From assembly GCF_013315695.1 (NCBI RefSeq), contig NZ_CP054353.1: a DNA stretch of 64,000 bases; one strand, given 5' to 3'. Position 1 is the stretch's first letter; each line of letters begins with the position of its first letter. The translations under genes were made by a program, and so were the position numbers. This DNA comes from Escherichia coli. Lineage in GTDB: Bacteria > Pseudomonadota > Gammaproteobacteria > Enterobacterales > Enterobacteriaceae. The notes beneath the pieces were generated by a model. That model had not been told where the DNA came from, made no database searches, and saw only the letters and a program-made list of their open reading frames with translations. Shown here one piece after another: positions 37,891 through 50,112 of the stretch.

Positions 37891-38282
37891 AGCTAATACT
37901 GCCTTTTCCGCCCAGCGTGAACACGTACTGGCGACACCCCAACAAAGGGGCGTTTGCTGGTAAGAGCCTGATAAGCGCGGCGGGGCGAAAATTCCAGAGC
38001 GCGGCGTGTGCAGCAATAGTTGAGCAGTTACGTCGTCTGCCGAAACCAACGTCGGCACCTGCTTCAGTGGAGATCGTGTTGTTTCCTCCGGATAACCGGA
38101 TCCGCGATCTGGACAACTATAACAAGGCGCTGTTTGACGCCCTGACCCACGCGGGTGTGTGGGAAGACGACAGTCAGGTGAAAAGAATGCTGGTGGAGTG
38201 GGGACCGGTTATCCCGGAGGGGAAGGTCGAGATCACTATCAGTAAGTACGAAAAAGCGAGTTGCAAATTAGCAACTCGGTAA
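37887..38282 (+). CDS. rusA: RusA-family Holliday-junction resolvase
   Basis: 131-aa ORF MKLILPFPPSVNTYW...DLDNYNKALFDALTHAGVWEDDSQV, conserved RusA motifs. Confidence 0.8.
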   Translation: MKLILPFPPSVNTYWRHPNKGAFAGKSLISAAGRKFQSAACAAIVEQLRRLPKPTSAPASVEIVLFPPDNRIRDLDNYNKALFDALTHAGVWEDDSQVKRMLVEWGPVIPEGKVEITISKYEKASCKLATR

Positions 38283-42691: not shown

Positions 42692-42767
42692 GGCCCTTTA
42701 GCTCAGTGGTGAGAGCGAGCGATTCATAATCGCCAGGTCGCTGGTTCAAATCCAGCAAGGGCCACCA
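42692..42767 (+). tRNA. tRNA with CAU anticodon (Ile2/Met-type; ileZ-like)
   Basis: Cloverleaf GGCCCTT-TA-GCTCAGTGGTGAGAGC..anticodon loop TTCATAA..GGTTCAAATCC..AAGGGCC-A-CCA. Confidence 0.85.
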
Positions 42768-42774
42768 TCACATA

Positions 42775-42851
42775 CCGCCATTAGCTCATCAGGATAGAGC
42801 GCCAGCCTTCGAAGCTGGTTGCGCGGGGTTCGAGTCCTCGATGGCGGTCCA
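42775..42851 (+). tRNA. tRNA-Arg (anticodon UCG; argN-like)
   Basis: Acceptor CCGCCAT/ATGGCGG, anticodon loop CTTCGAA, T-loop GGTTCGAGTCC, encoded CCA. Confidence 0.8.
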
Positions 42852-42864
42852 TTATCTGTACCCT

Positions 42865-42941
42865 GCGTTATTAGCTCAGCCGGACAGAGCAATTGCCTTC
42901 TAAGCAATCGGTCACTGGTTCGAATCCAGTACAACGCGCCA
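42865..42941 (+). tRNA. tRNA-Arg (anticodon UCU; argO/argU-like)
   Basis: GCGTTATTAGCTCAGCCGGACAGAGC..anticodon loop CTTCTAA..GGTTCGAATCC..CGCCA, close to host argU. Confidence 0.8.
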
Positions 42942-43433: not shown

Positions 43434-45395
43434 ATGGCATTTAAACACTATGACGTGGTCAGGGCGGCATCGCCGTCAGACCTTGCGAAACGACTGACAC
43501 AAAAACTGAAGGAGGGGTGGCAGCCATTTGGCAGTCCGGTGGCCATCACGCCTTATACCCTGATGCAGGCCATTGCGGCGGAAGGTGATGTCACCACACC
43601 TGTGGTGGTGAAGCCGTCGGATGGAGAAGGCGCAGTTATCAGCAACACCAGCAACCCGGAGTATTACTTTGTTGTTGCCCTGGCCGGGCAGTCAAACGGT
43701 ATGGCGTATGGTGAAGGGCTTCCGCTGCCGGAGACATATGACCGTCCGGACCCGCGTATTAAACAGCTGGCGCGTCGCAGCACTGTCACGCCGGGTGGTG
43801 CGTCCTGTAACTACAATGACATTATTCCTGCGGACCACTGCCTGCATGATGTTCAGGATTTGAGTAAGTTTTCACACCCGAAAGCCAGCGCAGCTCAGTA
43901 TGGATGCGTGGGGCAGGGATTACATATCGCGAAGAAATTGTTGCCGTTTATTCCGGCGAATGCCGGTATTCTTCTGGTTCCGTGCTGCCGTGGTGGTTCT
44001 GCATTTTTGGCGGGCGATGAAGGTACCTTCAGCGAATCCACCGGCGCAAGCGAGACCTCGGCACGCTGGGGTGTAGATAAGCCACTGTACAAGGACCTGC
44101 TTACCCGTACTCAGGCCGCACTGAAGGCCAACCCTAAAAATATTCTGCTTGCAGTGGTCTGGATGCAGGGCGAGTTTGATTTGAAACAGGGTGCATACGC
44201 CACTCAGCCGGGGCTGTTTGATTCCATGGTGGAAAAATATCGTTCTGACCTGTCGGAATTCGGAGGTCAGTGTCTCGGGGGCTCTCCGTCATCAGTTCCC
44301 TGGATTTGTGGCGACACGACCTACTACTGGAAGCAGACTTATTCTTCGCAATACGATGCGGTGTATGGTGCATATAAGACGAAATCCGCAAAAAAAATCT
44401 TCTTTGTGCCGTTTATGACGGATGAAAACGGGCGAAATGTGGGTACCAACGAGCCGTCAGAAGATCCGGATGTTGCGGATATTGGGTATTACGGAGCCGG
44501 TGGTCGAACGGACGCCAAAACCTGGACGACGGCTGACCGTAAAACGCATTTTGGATCATGGGCACGTCGTGGGATTATTTCCGACCGTCTGGCAACGGCG
44601 ATTCTTGTGCATGCCGGGAGAACCGCTGAATTCATTACCGGAAAACAGCCTGATACGGTGAAGCCCACCGGACCTTCCGGTGAAGGTACGGAGAGAGAGC
44701 CGGAAGGTCCGGTCAGTAACCGAACCCTGATGAGTCTGCTGGCGTCCGGCGAAGACCTGGCATCACAGGGCTGGCGCTATTATCACAAACCGGCGAGCGG
44801 AGACAATGTTAACAAAAACATTGCTGAAGCGGTGGTCAGTGATGCGGGGGCTACGGGAGGTAAGGCCCTGCAACTGAATAAACCGGAAAACCACATCTGG
44901 TTTCTGGAGCATGATGCAGCCGGGCAGGGGGCAGAGTTGCTGAAGAAAGGAGGACGTGTGAGCGTACGGTTTAAGTTGCCGGGTTCACTGGTGCCGAATC
45001 AGTTTGCCCTGGGCATTTACTGGCAGTTGTCGTCCCTGCCGGAGGGAGTGACGCTGGCAGAGGAAGGCAACGACATGCTGATGTCCTTCTTTCTGCAGAC
45101 GGATGCGACGAACCTGAACGCGATGCACCACAAGAAGCCGAATGCGAAGCTGGAAACGTTCGGGGTCTTTGATAACGGATGGCACACACTGGCTTTTGAG
45201 TTTGCCGGAAACAACAGCATTCAGGTGACGCCGGTACTGGATGAGAAACGGGGGACGCCGTTCACACTGGTGAAATCTCCGGCATCAGGGGCGGCGGACA
45301 AACTGCAACTGACAGGCATATCAAAGGCGGCGACATATACGCTGCTGATTGACAGTGTGAAGGTGGAAGTGAACAACGCGGATGCCGCGGCATGA
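43434..45395 (+). CDS. nanS-p: prophage sialate O-acetylesterase (NanS-p-like)
   Basis: 653-aa ORF; position and sequence recalled as the esterase found downstream of stx in Stx phages. Confidence 0.65.
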   Translation: MAFKHYDVVRAASPSDLAKRLTQKLKEGWQPFGSPVAITPYTLMQAIAAEGDVTTPVVVKPSDGEGAVISNTSNPEYYFVVALAGQSNGMAYGEGLPLPETYDRPDPRIKQLARRSTVTPGGASCNYNDIIPADHCLHDVQDLSKFSHPKASAAQYGCVGQGLHIAKKLLPFIPANAGILLVPCCRGGSAFLAGDEGTFSESTGASETSARWGVDKPLYKDLLTRTQAALKANPKNILLAVVWMQGEFDLKQGAYATQPGLFDSMVEKYRSDLSEFGGQCLGGSPSSVPWICGDTTYYWKQTYSSQYDAVYGAYKTKSAKKIFFVPFMTDENGRNVGTNEPSEDPDVADIGYYGAGGRTDAKTWTTADRKTHFGSWARRGIISDRLATAILVHAGRTAEFITGKQPDTVKPTGPSGEGTEREPEGPVSNRTLMSLLASGEDLASQGWRYYHKPASGDNVNKNIAEAVVSDAGATGGKALQLNKPENHIWFLEHDAAGQGAELLKKGGRVSVRFKLPGSLVPNQFALGIYWQLSSLPEGVTLAEEGNDMLMSFFLQTDATNLNAMHHKKPNAKLETFGVFDNGWHTLAFEFAGNNSIQVTPVLDEKRGTPFTLVKSPASGAADKLQLTGISKAATYTLLIDSVKVEVNNADAAA

Positions 45396-45546
45396 TAAAA
45401 AAAGGCCGCCAGCAATGAAGGAAAGGGATGAACTGTGTCCACTACATGAATGCTGGCGGCTGGTAAAACGACCACGATGACACCGAAGTTTGCGATATTT
45501 TTCTACAAAAATAAGTAAATCATGTCAACTATCACGGTGAGAAACC

Positions 45547-45729
45547 ATGACATTTCTGAACCAGTTAATGCTGTACTTCTGTACGGCAGTCTGTGTTATG
45601 TATCTTCTTTCGGGTGGGTACAGGGCAGTGCGCGATTTCTGGCGCAGGCAGATTGATAAAAGGGCCGCTGAGAGAATCAGCGCCAGTCAGTCAGCCGGAA
45701 GCAAACCCGAAGATCCGCTCATTCCGTAG
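45547..45729 (+). CDS. small hydrophobic protein
   Basis: 60-aa ORF with one predicted TM segment, upstream of the lysis cassette. Confidence 0.35.
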   Translation: MTFLNQLMLYFCTAVCVMYLLSGGYRAVRDFWRRQIDKRAAERISASQSAGSKPEDPLIP

Positions 45730-45766
45730 TCACTTTCTTGACAACACCTTTCAACGAGAAAATCCC

Positions 45767-46036
45767 ATGTCAGAAATCACATCCCTGGTCACTGCTGAGG
45801 CAGTGAAGGAAGTCCTGCGCTCTGAAGAAGTCCTGAGCGCACTGAAACAGAAACTCCGCCAGAACCTTGAGGCGCGTCTTGATGCAGAAGTGGATGCCAT
45901 TCTGGATGAGCTGCTGGGCGTACCAGCGGTTCCGGAGCCGGAAGGCATTGCGGATGACAGTACTGTTTCAGATGGCGTCGGGTCTCAGCCTGACGGTAGT
46001 GAAGAGCCTCAGCCTGACGGCGAAATGATGATGTAA
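45767..46036 (+). CDS. acidic hypothetical protein
   Basis: Internal start MSEITSLVTAE of ORF 45593..46036; highly acidic C-terminus. Confidence 0.4.
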   Translation: MSEITSLVTAEAVKEVLRSEEVLSALKQKLRQNLEARLDAEVDAILDELLGVPAVPEPEGIADDSTVSDGVGSQPDGSEEPQPDGEMMM

Positions 46037-46111
46037 CCATGCGCAGGGGGTGTCGGTGTGAGCTGATGCCCCACTTGTTGTTGTGAGCTTCCGGATTGCG
46101 GGAGACGGGGT

Positions 46112-46327
46112 ATGTACCAGATGGAAAAAATCACAACAGGTGTGTCATACACCACGTCAGCGGTGGGAACGGGCTACTGGTTCCTGCAGTTGCTGGACAG
46201 GGTTTCCCCGTCTCAGTGGGCGGCAATAGGCGTGCTGGGGAGTCTGCTGTTTGGGCTGCTGACATATCTGACTAACCTGTATTTCAAAATCAGAGAGGAC
46301 CGGCGTAAGGCGGCGCGGGGAGAGTAA
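46112..46327 (+). CDS. holin (phage-21 S-type pinholin)
   Basis: 71-aa [46 protein letters not shown]..., two TM segments, charged C-terminus; recalled as S21 family. Confidence 0.85.
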
Positions 46328-46328
46328 A

Positions 46329-46682
46329 GTGATGAATAAAAAATATGAACTGGTTGTTAAGGGGATAAATAATTACGGGGATAAGGTTACTGTTACTGTG
46401 AAGCCGGAAGGTGACGGGCAAGCGTCGCTGTTGTTGCCAGATGTGGCGATTAGTCTTGACCGTACTGAAGGTGCCACGCTGGAGTTTTACGAAGCTGAGG
46501 CGAAAAAGCAGGCGAAGCAGTTTTTCATGGATGTTGCTGCCGGGTTATGTGAAGGGGATGGTCCGTTGCCGGAAAAGCGCCCCGTAATTTTAGAGGCGCA
46601 GGATGTGTTGATAACCTACAAAGGAAAGCTACCGGGAAGAATTACTGGTTCTCTGAAGACTCCACCGGAATCACAACCTTAA
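46329..46682 (+). CDS. hypothetical protein inserted between holin and endolysin
   Basis: 117-aa hydrophilic ORF starting 1 bp after the holin stop. Confidence 0.5.
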   Translation: MMNKKYELVVKGINNYGDKVTVTVKPEGDGQASLLLPDVAISLDRTEGATLEFYEAEAKKQAKQFFMDVAAGLCEGDGPLPEKRPVILEAQDVLITYKGKLPGRITGSLKTPPESQP

Positions 46683-46745
46683 TTCACTGACCGGAACAGA
46701 TAAACCTGTCCGTGGGCAGAAACCGATAAATCCTGATAAATATCC

Positions 46746-47279
46746 ATGAACGCAAAAATCAGATACGGCCTGTCGGCTGCCGTTCTGGCGCTGATTGCCG
46801 CAGGTGCGCCTGCGCCTGACATTCTCGACCAGTTTCTGGATGAAAAGGAAGGTAACCACACCACGGCATACCGTGATGGTGCGGGTATCTGGACTATCTG
46901 CCGCGGTGCCATCCTGGTGGATGGCAAACCTGTCGTTCCGGGCATGAAGTTGTCGAAGGAAAAATGCGACCAGGTTAACGCCATTGAGCGTGATAAAGCG
47001 CTGGCGTGGGTGGAGAAAAACATCAGAGTGCCGCTGACCGAACCCCAGAAAGCGGGGATCGCGTCATTCTGTCCGTACAACATTGGTCCCGGTAAGTGTT
47101 TCCCGTCGACGTTTTATAAACGAATTAATGCAGGTGATCGCAGGGGAGCGTGTGAGGCGATTCGCTGGTGGATTAAGGACGGTGGCAGAGACTGCCGTAT
47201 CCGCTCAAACAACTGTTATGGTCAGGTATCCCGTCGTGACCAGGAGAGCGCGCTGGCGTGCTGGGGAATCGACAGATAA
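46746..47279 (+). CDS. SAR endolysin (lysozyme, GH24; phage-21 R-type)
   Basis: N-terminal signal-anchor-release segment (LSAAVLALIAAGAPA) and E-D-T catalytic triad spacing (EGNHTTAYRDGAGIWTICRG). Confidence 0.85.
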   Translation: MNAKIRYGLSAAVLALIAAGAPAPDILDQFLDEKEGNHTTAYRDGAGIWTICRGAILVDGKPVVPGMKLSKEKCDQVNAIERDKALAWVEKNIRVPLTEPQKAGIASFCPYNIGPGKCFPSTFYKRINAGDRRGACEAIRWWIKDGGRDCRIRSNNCYGQVSRRDQESALACWGIDR

Positions 47280-47370
47280 GCAGAATATTTTGCTGAAAAA
47301 TAAGGCATGGCCACGCGGGCGGATAACACGAAATCCTGCGAACTGGCGAAACGTAAGTGAATAAAAGTAA

Positions 47371-47410
47371 AAACCCCGTTTGTTGGCACCAAGCGGGGTT
47401 TTGTGTTTCC
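47371..47410 (+). terminator. strong stem-loop with U-tract inside the lysis cassette
   Basis: aaaccccgtttg-ttggcac-caagcggggttt followed by tgtgttt. Confidence 0.5.
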
Positions 47411-47438
47411 TGACTCCGGAAAAGTCAAAGGAGAAAGT

Positions 47439-47576
47439 GTGTTTGATTTTAGCAAACTGATTCGGGAGATTCGAGTGATGGCTGAAAAATTATCCACCTG
47501 GAAGTTCATTCTTATCTGGCTGGTGTTTGTGATTATGGCCTCCGGTTATTTCATCGGTCAGATACGCTGGTGGTGA
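47439..47576 (+). CDS. small membrane protein (45 aa from GTG, or 32 aa from ATG at 47478)
   Basis: AGGAG RBS 9 nt upstream of GTG; product ...MAEKLSTWKFILIWLVFVIMASGYFIGQIRWW; stop overlaps the Rz start. Confidence 0.4.
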   Translation: MFDFSKLIREIRVMAEKLSTWKFILIWLVFVIMASGYFIGQIRWW

Positions 47577-47577
47577 A

Positions 47578-48015
47578 ATGAACCGCGTACTGTGCGTGGT
47601 CATCATTGCCCTGCTGGTGGCCTGTGGTGCGCTTAGTCTGGGGCTGAATCATTACCGTGATAACGCCATGACCTACAAAGAGCAGCGCGATAAAGCCACA
47701 TCCATCATCGCTGATATGCAGAAGCGTCAACGTGATGTAGCAGAACTCGACGCCAGATACACAAAGGAGCTTGCTGATGCTAACGCGACTATCGAAAGTC
47801 TCCGTGCTGATGTTTCTGCTGGTCGTAAGCGCCTGCAAGTCGCCGCCACCTGTGCAAAGTCAACGACCGGAGCCAGCAGCATGGGCGATGGAGAAAGCCC
47901 AAGACTTACAGCAGATGCTGAACTCAATTATTACCGTCTCCGAAGTGGAATCGACAAGATAACCGCGCAGGTTAACTACCTGCAGGAATACATCAGGACG
48001 CAATGCCTGAAATAA
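47578..48015 (+). CDS. i-spanin Rz
   Basis: 145-aa ORF with N-terminal TM and coiled-coil periplasmic domain; Rz1 embedded. Confidence 0.8.
   Translation: MNRVLCVVIIALLVACGALSLGLNHYRDNAMTYKEQRDKATSIIADMQKRQRDVAELDARYTKELADANATIESLRADVSAGRKRLQVAATCAKSTTGASSMGDGESPRLTADAELNYYRLRSGIDKITAQVNYLQEYIRTQCLK
47771..47962 (+). CDS. o-spanin Rz1 (lipoprotein) embedded in Rz in the +1 frame
   Basis: Lipobox LVVSAC followed by a proline-rich segment; fully inside Rz. Confidence 0.7.
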   Translation: MLMLTRLSKVSVLMFLLVVSACKSPPPVQSQRPEPAAWAMEKAQDLQQMLNSIITVSEVESTR

Positions 48016-48216
48016 TTTTTTTGCAAATCACAAAGTCAATTTAATGAGCCTCGCGATGCGGGGCTTTTTGCAATAAATGCGTACCGCAACGCATGTTTTT
48101 TACACCGAACCTGCCCCTTTGGAATGGGCCTTTGAGGATACCAGTTAGTGCTGGCGAGCCTCGGTGGGCTGGTTTCCTATGCGGCAAAGGTTCATTTCAA
48201 ATGGTAGGTAAACGTT

Positions 48217-48738
48217 ATGAATATCGTGCCACTTAATTACAAAGGTGAAATTGTCAGTTTCAACACTGATGGTTGGATCAACGTCACAGGTGTTGCTGAG
48301 AGATTTGGAAAACGCATTGATAACTGGATGCGTTTGGCAGAAACGCTTGAATACGTTCGTGCTTTAGACGAAGCGTTGACCGGGAAAGAATCTCAAATTT
48401 TACATCCCTCACAATCGAGGTATGTAAAAACCAGCAAGGCACGAAAGGACAGGGGTGGTGGTACGTGGCTACATCCAAAACTTTCAGTTGCATTTGCCCG
48501 TTGGTGTGATGCTCGTTTTGCTGTGTGGTGCGACCTGCACATTGATAGTCTGCTTCGCGGTGAACTGACTGAGCAGCAGAAATATGAGCAAGCATGTCGC
48601 ATTCGCGATGACCGGAAATCAAAAGCCAGCAATGGGGCAAGAGAGATGGCTCGCTGGCGATGGGATAAGCCGGTTATTGAAGCAAATGTTGAGTACTGGC
48701 GCGAGCAACTGCAGTTGACTCTCGATATCGCGTGCTGA
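48217..48738 (+). CDS. KilA-N-like domain protein
   Basis: 173-aa ORF with WLHPKLSVAFARWCDARFAVW motif. Confidence 0.45.
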   Translation: MNIVPLNYKGEIVSFNTDGWINVTGVAERFGKRIDNWMRLAETLEYVRALDEALTGKESQILHPSQSRYVKTSKARKDRGGGTWLHPKLSVAFARWCDARFAVWCDLHIDSLLRGELTEQQKYEQACRIRDDRKSKASNGAREMARWRWDKPVIEANVEYWREQLQLTLDIAC

Positions 48739-49719
48739 TGGCAAACGCAAAACTGCGTTATCGGAAAAATCAAAGCATTACGAGAACTGAGCAACGGCTA
48801 TCCATTACAAAGCCCATCTACGGGTGGGCTTGATAATGAAACCGGAATTTATTCTTGGCAACCAGTTACGGCAGTACCACGAAACAACCCAAGCCAGTAA
48901 GTGGGGAAATAACACTGGCAGCCACTGAAAGATGAAGCTCCTGCCTTAAGGCAAAAAAGATTCTTTGTGGTGGCGGACTGATGGAAAGACATCGGTTATT
49001 GCAGAGGCCATTCAATGAGTGGTCTCGACAATGGCTTATACCCTACACGGGATAACTTAACTGATATCCCTTTTAAAGGATAAAGGTATTCAAGCCTGAC
49101 ACATCATGCGCTGTATCGTCGCCGTATTCCTGCATTAACAGAGACCGCAGCCCGACAGGGAGACTCCTCTGCGCGAGTGTGCGGGGATAATCAAAAACGA
49201 TACACACCGGGGTTTACCGCGTTAACGGAGCGCGGCGTTGTCCCCTCATAGTCGCCTGTCCGGTGCGATGGTGGAAGAAACCGGATGTTTATCACTATTA
49301 ATTGATGACACAGAAATGGATTCATTGAATTTCAGCACGTTTTTGTATTCGTGTTATTGAACATCTGTTTATTTTACTTTTAACATATTGATAATAAAAA
49401 GAGCTGTAAATCTTTAGATGAGTCGATTTTGTCCGGGGAAGTTCAAATGGATTTTATGCTGACGGTTTCTGGTGTGGTTATCCTGTCCATTGCTTATACT
49501 GCAGATAAATATGGCTGCCATTTGTTATCACGTATTGGCGCTTATTGTTCGTTGATGCTGATTTTCTCGTCGCTTTTTTTTGAGTAAGTTATATTAATTA
49601 TAACAAATAATTTTCTGTGTTATTTTTTCAGGCTATCCCGTCAGAGGGGAAGCCTGTACTGCCGGGGAGCGAATGGAAAACTGATGTGTCCGGTAACTGC
49701 GTGTTCTGTGAACACCATG

Positions 49720-49905
49720 TTACTTAATTATGTAATTCATACCCGAACTCTCTGTTGACAGCCTTCTTCTGCAGGCTTCAATAACCCACGCTGAAAAGTT
49801 TCCTGAACCTTTCAGATCAAGAGCGATGTTAATTTGTTCAATCATCTGGTTTGGAAATCGGATGTTGCGGGTTGTTGTTCTGCGGGTTCTGTTCTTTGAT
49901 GACAT
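49720..49905 (-). CDS. small ribbon-helix-helix-like DNA-binding protein (YlcI/DUF3950-like)
   Basis: 61-aa ORF MSSKNRTRRTTTRNIRFPNQMIEQINIALDLKGSGNFSAWVIEACRRRL. Confidence 0.45.
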   Translation of the reverse strand: MSSKNRTRRTTTRNIRFPNQMIEQINIALDLKGSGNFSAWVIEACRRRLSTESSGMNYIIK

Positions 49906-50112
49906 AATGTTTCCCCATATTCAGTGTTGCTGATTTGTATTATCTGAAGTTGCTTTTACGTTAATTTGATGCAGATCAATTAATACGATACCTGCGTCAT
50001 AATTGATTATTTCTCGTGGTTTGATGGCGTACACACATGTTGTGATAAACCTTATATAGATGATAATCATTATCATTTTCGTGGGTCCTTTCCGGCGATC
50101 CGACCGGTTACG

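Follow-up and report, generated by a model that had tools for sequence, protein, structure and literature searches.

The question raised by this locus is why a terminator-like hairpin and a very small open reading frame (ORF) should lie between the endolysin and Rz genes of a phage lysis operon. The locus was found in a 64,000-nucleotide stretch of Escherichia coli DNA (contig NZ_CP054353.1, assembly GCF_013315695.1; hereafter the window), of which positions 46112-48015 form a phage-21-type lysis cassette. There, the endolysin (lysozyme) gene (46746-47279, plus strand, stop codon 47277-47279) and the Rz gene (47578-48015, plus strand) are separated by a spacer of 298 bp. A preliminary description of the spacer had treated the hairpin as an unexpected anomaly of the lysis operon, and the ORF as a possible antiholin-like modulator, membrane toxin or insertion scar. 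As judged from comparison with related loci, hairpin and ORF are one conserved, mobile cassette of about 215 bp (called the unit below), to which the terminator belongs as part of the small gene's own equipment, and the ORF is a real small membrane-protein gene rather than a scar. Probably, a short antisense RNA, predicted from the sequence, keeps this gene silent.

The first structure of the unit, hairpin 1, occupies 47370-47402 and starts 90 nucleotides (nt) past the endolysin stop, so that the 13-bp stem with U-tract of the preliminary description was recovered where it had been placed. It consists of AAAACCCCGTTTG, the 7-nt loop TTGGCAC and CAAGCGGGGTTTT, followed by GTGTTTCC, and it contains 13 pairs, six of them GC and one a G.U pair on the plus strand. 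The predicted fold has an energy of -18.9 kcal/mol (z = -3.7), and the hairpin is the top terminator-like site in 45000-49000, a region with 12 such sites against 3.9 expected in shuffles. On the plus strand it runs into the U-tract TTTTGTGTTTCC at 47399-47410 (family consensus TTTT(C/G)TGTTTC). On its other side lies an A-rich tract at 47358-47373, which reads aataaaagtaaaaa on the plus strand and gives the U tail UUUUUACUUUUAUU after the hairpin on the minus strand. The plus-strand family consensus of this tract is AAAAGC(A/G)AAA, its columns are near-invariant in the unfitted alignment A3, and the minus-strand U tail corresponds to the near-invariant AAAAGCAAAA. In both directions, a GC-rich stem is followed by a U-tract as in intrinsic terminators (TTTTGTGTTTCC on the plus strand and TTTTTACTTTTATT on the minus strand), and the structure is kept by compensatory change in 8-10 of the 13 pairs. 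Hairpin 1 would therefore act as a working terminator and is probably bidirectional.

Downstream of hairpin 1, stem 2 and the ribosome site occupy 47409-47433 on the plus strand. CCTGAC at 47409-47414 pairs with GTC..AGG at 47424-47431 with a 2-nt bulge, and the 3' arm overlaps the Shine-Dalgarno (SD) sequence AAGGAG at 47428-47433. Five bases further lies the GTG start codon of the small ORF (47439-47576, plus strand; stop codon TGA at 47574-47576), which encodes 45 amino acids, (M)FDFSKLIREIRVMAEKLSTWKFILIWLVFVIMASGYFIGQIRWW. Exactly this ORF is annotated in some genomes by the Prokaryotic Genome Annotation Pipeline, as the hypothetical protein WP_000459345.1. The SD-preceded small hydrophobic ORF noted earlier is hence confirmed, its 32-residue version being the one that begins at the internal Met14. 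Its stop codon does not overlap the Rz start as had been described, since the Rz ATG (47578-47580) begins one base past the stop at 47576. A longer reading of 57 amino acids from GTG 47403 was set aside as a mere upstream extension without an SD sequence.

The leader and the ORF were found to travel together. In every family locus inspected the leader precedes the ORF, at a similar distance of about 70 nt in 21 of 22; at loci L114 and L115 the hairpin is weaker and lies farther from the ORF. The order of elements is AAAAGC(A/G)AAA, the GC hairpin, TTTT(C/G)TGTTTC, a second stem overlapping the SD sequence and then a GTG, TTG or ATG start. Both stems are preserved by compensatory changes. In an unfitted MAFFT alignment of 20 sequences, 8 of the 13 pairs of hairpin 1 were changed on both sides and 90% of cells were paired, and in a model-fitted alignment of 42 distinct sequences these values were 10 of 13 and 94%. 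Neither alignment was matched by any of 500 shuffles, and slid-partner controls scored far lower. The corresponding values for stem 2 were 4 of 5 pairs and 77% in the unfitted alignment, and 5 of 5 pairs and 77.5% in the model-fitted one, with compensatory variants such as CCTTG/CAAGG, CCGTTA/TAACGG and CCTTCTG/CAGAAGG among homologues; read directly from the sequence, the window copy of stem 2 has a weak register.

That the unit is inserted DNA follows from phages in which it is missing. In K-12 the endolysin and Rz genes of both Qin (rrrQ/rzpQ) and DLP12 (rrrD/rzpD) overlap without any spacer, and the spacer is therefore an insertion. In the Sakai prophage Sp15 the first ~95 nt after the endolysin gene are kept and are followed by an antirepressor gene (Ant) and a different small membrane ORF, ECs_5741, without the hairpin, so the hairpin is not part of the endolysin gene. 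The post-endolysin segment at 47280-47357 (plus strand) is accordingly placed outside the unit; it is common to phages that have neither hairpin nor ORF, and was observed as a conserved non-coding stretch of ~80-90 nt.

Of 5426 complete E. coli genomes, 2059 contain a match to the spacer, and in 870 the match covers at least 80% of it. The other 1189 gave a partial match only, many because the post-endolysin segment is shared with phages without the unit, such as Sakai Sp15. Comparison with related lysis cassettes, as had been suggested, showed the ORF to be conserved: the spacer occurs, at 94-96% identity, in H-19B as well as in numerous phages of the Stx1a, Stx2a and Stx2c types. More distant relatives were detected by tblastn in the Salmonella phages SPN3UB and SEN34 and the Pseudomonas phage YMC11/02/R656, and by a profile scan with alignment A1 at 12 loci in genomes of Citrobacter, Yersinia, Sodalis, Pantoea, Providencia and Pseudomonas. 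A search of metagenome representatives returned 50 clusters at 50% identity. The unit is common in E. coli and mostly unannotated, with no feature at the ORF in 21 of the best 30 genome records. As a separate observation, a copy 89% identical to the E. coli-type protein was found at 37933-38067 of the Actinobacillus phage vB_Apl-pPE4 (PP818812.1), recorded from A. pleuropneumoniae, a host in which such high identity was not expected.

All copies of the unit point in the same direction as the late genes but lie at differing junctions. It follows the endolysin gene in at least seven lysis cassettes (the window, SPN3UB and loci L110, L093, L099, L100 and L009), and these copies precede the spanin gene wherever a spanin was recognised. 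Judged by length, Pfam family or annotation, the endolysins of these cassettes appear to be of different types. Elsewhere, the unit lies between baseplate genes (in SEN34 and Yersinia, and the Pantoea copy has the flanking sequence of SEN34), after the tail protein K gene, between the gene for tail chaperone T and a gene further on that occupies the tape-measure position, between genes that read as tail I and J, and in head modules. It was also found among ParE, HicAB and RelB cargo near terminase genes. That the unit moves in this way speaks against a role confined to a single holin-endolysin pair, even if its repeated occurrence after endolysin genes deserves note.

The ORF itself is under selection at the protein level. 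Pairwise ratios of nonsynonymous to synonymous substitution (dN/dS) were 0.05-0.3 with synonymous sites saturated, and conservation extends from E. coli to Pseudomonas phages; on these grounds the idea of an insertion scar was rejected. Among viral contigs, the best 80 copies in the profile scan with alignment A1, all of E. coli type, were intact and encoded an identical protein. The protein matched PHROG 6632, a family with no assigned function, over its full length (residues 1-45 of a 45-position profile, E = 1.2e-29). No match to it was obtained with Pfam, NCBIfam, PADLOC or PDB sequence profiles, and a literature search with the peptide, WP_000459345.1 and the PHROG number found nothing.

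An AlphaFold2 model built on a 30-sequence alignment (mean predicted local distance difference test score 84) contains two helices, residues 4-17 and 20-43, which are separated by a break at the conserved Leu-Pro/Ser. By sequence reading, the N-terminal 22 residues are amphipathic with a net charge of +2, residues 23-41 (F23-Q41) are uncharged and the C-terminus is QIRWW. These features suggest an N-in bitopic inner-membrane protein, with a cytoplasmic amphipathic helix and one transmembrane helix. The most conserved residues, E10, R12 and F23, lie in or beside the cytoplasmic helix, from which we infer a specific partner or oligomerisation rather than a generic pore. Such a protein would be membrane-active or harmful if mis-expressed. 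The codon of Met14 (ATG, 47478-47480, plus strand) is present in 17 of 18 family members and is preceded, 9 nt upstream, by GGGAG at 47464-47468. It is possible that Met14 serves as a second start giving a 32-residue form, and the pair of 45- and 32-residue proteins would then be reminiscent of holin/antiholin pairs.

The candidate antisense promoter was recognised from codon usage within the ORF. Two blocks of codons are frozen at synonymous sites. In codons 3-6, GAT is used for 14 of 14 Asp, TTT for 10 of 10 Phe, ATT for 5 of 5 Ile, AGC for 17 of 17 Ser and AAA for 15 of 17 Lys; in codons 10-12, GAG is used in 17 of 18 cases, TTG for 10 of 10 Leu and CGA for 13 of 18 Arg. The freeze persists in GC-rich Pseudomonas phages. 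At other conserved residues (L7, I8, R9, L18, P19, F23, G36 and Y37) the synonymous sites vary freely. Read on the minus strand, the frozen blocks spell TCGCAA, a 17-nt spacer and TGcTAAAAT, which is an extended -10 element with a weak -35. In the window, the predicted extended -10 lies at 47446-47454 (minus strand), as the reverse complement of codons 3-6 (GAT TTT AGC A), and the weak -35-like TCGAAT (family TCGCAA) lies 17 nt upstream of it at 47469-47474 (minus strand), overlapping the frozen codons 10-12. Two other explanations were tried and dropped: a minus-strand promoter at 47561..47532 (CTGACC-18-CATAAT), the first antisense candidate, is not conserved in homologues, and an AGCAA/UUGC mRNA stem as the cause of both frozen blocks finds no support in the window and Pseudomonas copies.

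This motif is enriched throughout the family. The window copy of the -10 ranks in the top 0.1% of the window background, and the minus-strand score over ORF nucleotides -3 to +33 lies in the top 10% of the locus background for 32 of the 33 units, with a median percentile of 0.3% against 29% for the plus strand. The TGn extension is carried by 24 of the 33 units, and the -7 base lies at ORF nucleotides 3-14, mostly 5-8, so that transcription would start at about the start codon. A score that 85% of units attain is attained by just 6.5% of the gene starts in a control set of 92 from prophages. The Mann-Whitney p is 3e-16 when all units are compared and 3e-6 when the comparison is confined to the eight whose N-termini are unrelated or divergent; as the tested sequences are related, these p-values overstate their independence.

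With a covariance model of the leader, further leader copies were recovered in front of additional small membrane ORFs, of which seven have unrelated N-termini. These copies precede membrane ORFs of 50-60 amino acids at L107 (3620-3879 and 5146-5384), L103 (1907-2170), L114 (3210-3456), L129 (4050-4280), L111 (2601-2863) and L139 (436-680), and several of the ORFs found in this way end in IRWW. Up to three leader units were counted per phage region. In their first codons these extra units carry strong minus-strand -10 hexamers, namely TATACT, TATCAT, TGnTATTAT, TGnTATACT, TACAAT and TATAAT. From the geometry of promoter and terminator, a cis-antisense RNA of ~75-85 nt is predicted at 47360-47441 (minus strand). 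Its sequence would complement the start codon, the SD sequence and stem 2, and its 3' end would be formed by hairpin 1 with the U tail. For four homologues the predicted fold, made up of a short 5' single strand, a stem-loop and the terminator, has z values from -3.0 to -4.5.

The sense strand offers no promoter of its own. When 19 units were scanned from -120 to +260, no sigma70-like plus-strand site was found upstream of or within the ORF, apart from a sole hit at L114 that straddles the start codon of that ORF. The protein must therefore come from read-through late mRNA. A Q-family antiterminator gene is located ~6.8 kb upstream of the unit (annotation transferred from the collinear MS7163 prophage), with three tRNA genes and an esterase gene in between. 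As is established for phage lambda, Q-modified polymerase is able to pass terminators, and in a Q-antiterminated operon the terminator is therefore tolerable rather than an operon-breaking anomaly.

Taken together, these observations are best accommodated by an antisense-gated, terminator-insulated cassette whose protein is made only during strong late transcription, an account that we consider probable, though with moderate confidence. In this model, a self-contained unit of ~215 bp, lacking a promoter for its protein, would have been inserted co-directionally into phage late operons, and its mRNA would be the late polycistronic transcript, here from Q-antiterminated polymerase. Hairpin 1, as an intrinsic terminator, would stop stray transcription arriving from upstream. 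Translation would be restrained by stem 2, which would hide part of the SD sequence, and by the GTG start codon. Finally, the minus-strand extended -10 in codons 3-6 would act constitutively to produce an antisense RNA of ~80 nt, covering the start codon and SD sequence and terminating at hairpin 1 read in reverse. With these three throttles, the protein would appear only under massive late transcription.

The same leader can be explained with less machinery. If hairpin 1 is just a plus-strand terminator that insulates the gene and is passed by the terminator-resistant late polymerase, the protein would be made without any antisense RNA, and the -10-like motif on the minus strand would arise incidentally from the AU-richness of the first codons. 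AU-rich gene starts are a general phenomenon, the unit here sits in a Q-dependent late operon and has no promoter of its own, and the plus-strand fold of the hairpin is more stable than the minus-strand fold in 16 of 20 sequences, its wobbles being G.U on the plus strand (15 G.U cells against 5 A.C cells). Because of this stability and these wobbles, a plus-strand function of the hairpin is probably also under selection. AU-richness does not predict the invariant AGC for Ser, however, as AGT or TCT would be more AU-rich, nor does it predict TG at a fixed spacing in 24 of 33 units. It likewise fails to account for the conserved A-tract 5' of the hairpin and for the reappearance of the motif where the N-termini of the ORFs are unrelated. 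Insulation without an antisense RNA is regarded as unlikely.

A role in lysis was also weighed, in which the protein would work with the pinholin and signal-anchor-release (SAR) endolysin, either like an antiholin or as a modulator of release, and would exist in 45- and 32-residue forms from a dual start at Met14. It would fit the location of the unit directly after the endolysin gene in at least seven cassettes, the conservation of Met14 with an SD-like AGGGAG upstream and the close abutment of the ORF on Rz. Its recurrence after several apparently different endolysin types makes a lysis link possible, but the antiholin of the preliminary description is disfavoured by units lying between baseplate, tail and head genes far from holins, as well as in toxin-antitoxin cargo. 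The endolysins next to the unit also appear to be of different types, and the C-terminus is only RWW in place of the charged tail typical of holins; such a role is thus judged quite improbable. Still less can be said for the hairpin being the 3' end of a small RNA (sRNA) derived from the endolysin transcript R or the intergenic region, with the ORF as an unrelated neighbour or scar. The ~90 nt past the endolysin stop are indeed conserved among E. coli phages and precede the hairpin, and in Stx-type phages this region often encodes prophage sRNAs that have terminators. Against this, the hairpin travels with the ORF into contexts without an endolysin, Sp15 has the post-endolysin 95 nt but neither hairpin nor ORF, and the ORF is under purifying selection. 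In addition, of the Pas and EcOnc prophage sRNAs whose positions are given in the published accounts, PasA/C/D and EcOnc02/27 map upstream of the holin gene and PasB in a structural-protein operon, none of them in this gap. This explanation is already contradicted by the comparative data and is considered highly improbable.

Several points weigh against the antisense-gated cassette itself. The -35 element is weak, with 3 of 6 matches, and the second block of frozen codons can also be read as an SD-like (A/C)GGGAG placed nine bases 5' of Met14, so that the constraint on it may come from an internal start and not from a -35. Bacterial genes often begin with AT-rich codons, and a plus-strand role for ATTTTAnCA is possible; the invariant AGC and fixed TG are not what AU-richness would predict. 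A test by synonymous recoding gave weak significance only (Fisher p = 0.03); its null drew codons from the family's own pool and was hence conservative, and the test was superseded by the background and gene-start controls. The G.U wobbles favour the plus-strand hairpin, which leaves a minus-strand terminator with A.C mismatches. In phages without antitermination, a plus-strand terminator between essential tail genes should be polar. A scan of 44000-50000 on both strands with the Rfam 15 covariance models, including STnc490/art200, Sok, AgvB and AsxR, matched no family to the unit at E <= 1 and gave two chance hits only, away from it. The toxicity of the protein is wholly inferred, and the membrane toxin of the preliminary description is kept as the closest reading by virtue of the repression layers (an upstream terminator, an SD-masking stem, an often non-AUG start and a predicted cis-antisense RNA), which are typical of toxic small membrane proteins.

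Among known systems, the closest design by analogy appears to be the left end of IS200. It has been reported that a bidirectional terminator there protects against impinging transcription, that a stem sequesters the SD sequence and that a 90-nt antisense RNA, art200, covers the 5' untranslated region and three codons (PMC4513863). As predicted for our unit, the rho-independent terminator is placed just upstream of the mobile gene and a second stem masks the SD sequence. No sequence or structure homology between the two was detected in the Rfam scan. The cargo of IS200 is a transposase and its leader is ~140 nt long, whereas the unit carries a 45-residue membrane protein behind a leader of ~70 nt within a phage late operon; past its terminator, IS200 also has a weak promoter of its own, for which no counterpart was seen in the unit.

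Type I toxin-antitoxin systems, with the SymE/SymR geometry or as in hok/sok, use an antisense RNA whose start lies within the first codons or close to them and which overlaps the SD sequence, and they repress translation in layers. Their toxins are hydrophobic membrane proteins of fewer than 60 amino acids, a class in which the 45-residue product would fit, with an antisense RNA that is predicted here. Unlike these systems, the unit has no toxin promoter that would give a stable mRNA (19 units scanned), and the most conserved part of its protein is the cytoplasmic amphipathic helix, not the transmembrane segment. The PHROG 6632 family is not listed in a survey of type I toxin-antitoxin systems. 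In P22, the short antisense sar RNA acts against the ribosome-binding region of ant, a gene within an operon, and delays or limits its expression. That locus is unrelated in sequence and its product is a soluble antirepressor. As for holin/antiholin genes, the hydrophilic, highly charged C-terminal tail is absent, only QIRWW following the transmembrane segment.

The unit also resembles the morons of lambdoid phages, which are described as extra DNA between genes that are adjacent in relatives (Juhala et al. 2000, as cited in PMC4104026). So far as that citation describes them, the likeness is that the unit lies between genes adjacent in related phages (rrrQ/rzpQ and rrrD/rzpD, overlapping in K-12) and occurs at many late-operon junctions next to other cargo. 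A classic moron in this description is a promoter, a gene and a terminator expressed in the lysogen, whereas our unit is a terminator and a gene, with neither a sense promoter nor a downstream terminator, and would be built to stay silent in the lysogen.

It can be tentatively suggested, as a possibility we hold with some doubt, that the 70-nt leader is a previously undescribed portable module, consisting of a two-way terminator, an SD-masking stem and an antisense promoter placed within the first codons, that plugs several unrelated small membrane proteins into the late operons of temperate phages of Enterobacterales and Pseudomonas. Many genomes carry several leader copies and the leaders are conserved between phages. 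When a related phage is induced or superinfects, its late mRNA could therefore also become a target for pairing by the antisense RNA that a resident prophage would make. If true, this would amount to an RNA-level lock or to interference between phages. If the antisense RNA exists, the unit would be a new compact gene-plus-regulator design, with a small protein and an sRNA hidden in a much-studied phage operon. The matter bears on how phages silence harmful late membrane proteins in lysogens, and the leader model alone offers a route to similar cassettes.

Other small membrane ORFs were noticed at the same junction, which appears, from the loci compared, to be a hotspot for them. ECs_5741 of Sakai Sp15 (locus L117, 14749-14895, minus strand) is a single-pass membrane ORF of 48 amino acids, positioned just before Rz and after the antirepressor gene. 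Like the small ORF of the window, ORFs of this type in Sp15 and phiSTEC1589-Stx1c have 43-48 amino acids and a single pass and lie directly before Rz; they belong to a different protein family (MISDKLITLVKSLCV...), and in Sp15 there is no hairpin leader. In phiSTEC1589-Stx1c (L009, 2430-2950), the gap between endolysin and Rz genes is a mosaic with the same hairpin and a Providencia-type family member, together with a 43-residue ECs_5741-like membrane ORF, a third copy of the family that appears to be frameshifted and, ahead of Rz, a 3' stub (...RAIRWW stop). In SPN3UB (L006, ~2235-2345), an unannotated, apparent hydrophobic ORF of ~36 amino acids (MSKRDVSALCFLMAAAVAISGNDGWGWLIFAGIIIL) overlaps the endolysin stop, upstream of the unit.

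The 3' end of the unit meets its neighbour closely. The last codons of the small ORF, TGGTGGTGA, yield an SD-like GGTGG ahead of the Rz ATG; at 47566-47580 this is the reading of TGG TGG TGA, the last codons and stop. In many family members and several unrelated cargo ORFs, (I)RWW-stop likewise closes the ORF with the next gene only a few bases away, and the unit may carry a built-in ribosome site for whichever gene lies downstream. A minus-strand ORF of 95 amino acids at 47222-47509 spans the spacer and is a hypothetical protein in phage CP-1639; as it crosses the hairpin and the conserved plus-strand ORF, it is probably spurious.

The remainder of the lysis cassette was assigned as follows. 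A class II holin gene (46112-46327) comes first, and a YdfR-family ORF of 117 amino acids (46329-46682) is wedged between the holin and endolysin genes, as also seen in K-12 Qin. The N-terminus of the endolysin reads as a SAR-type signal-anchor, the annotation giving just "lysozyme". Rz1 (47771-47962) is embedded in Rz. The phage tRNA genes Met-CAT, Arg-TCG and Arg-TCT (42692-42941) lie upstream of the esterase gene and downstream of Q, as placed by the transfer from MS7163. This Q-tRNA-esterase order is the arrangement of Stx-type phages, with no stx genes between the tRNA genes and the lysis cassette. After Rz, two successive terminator-like hairpins, GAGCCUCGCGAUGCGGGGCUUUUUGC and then AUGCGUACCGCAACGCAUGUUUUUU, were observed at 48046-48100, and a KilA-N gene (48217-48738) lies downstream of both.

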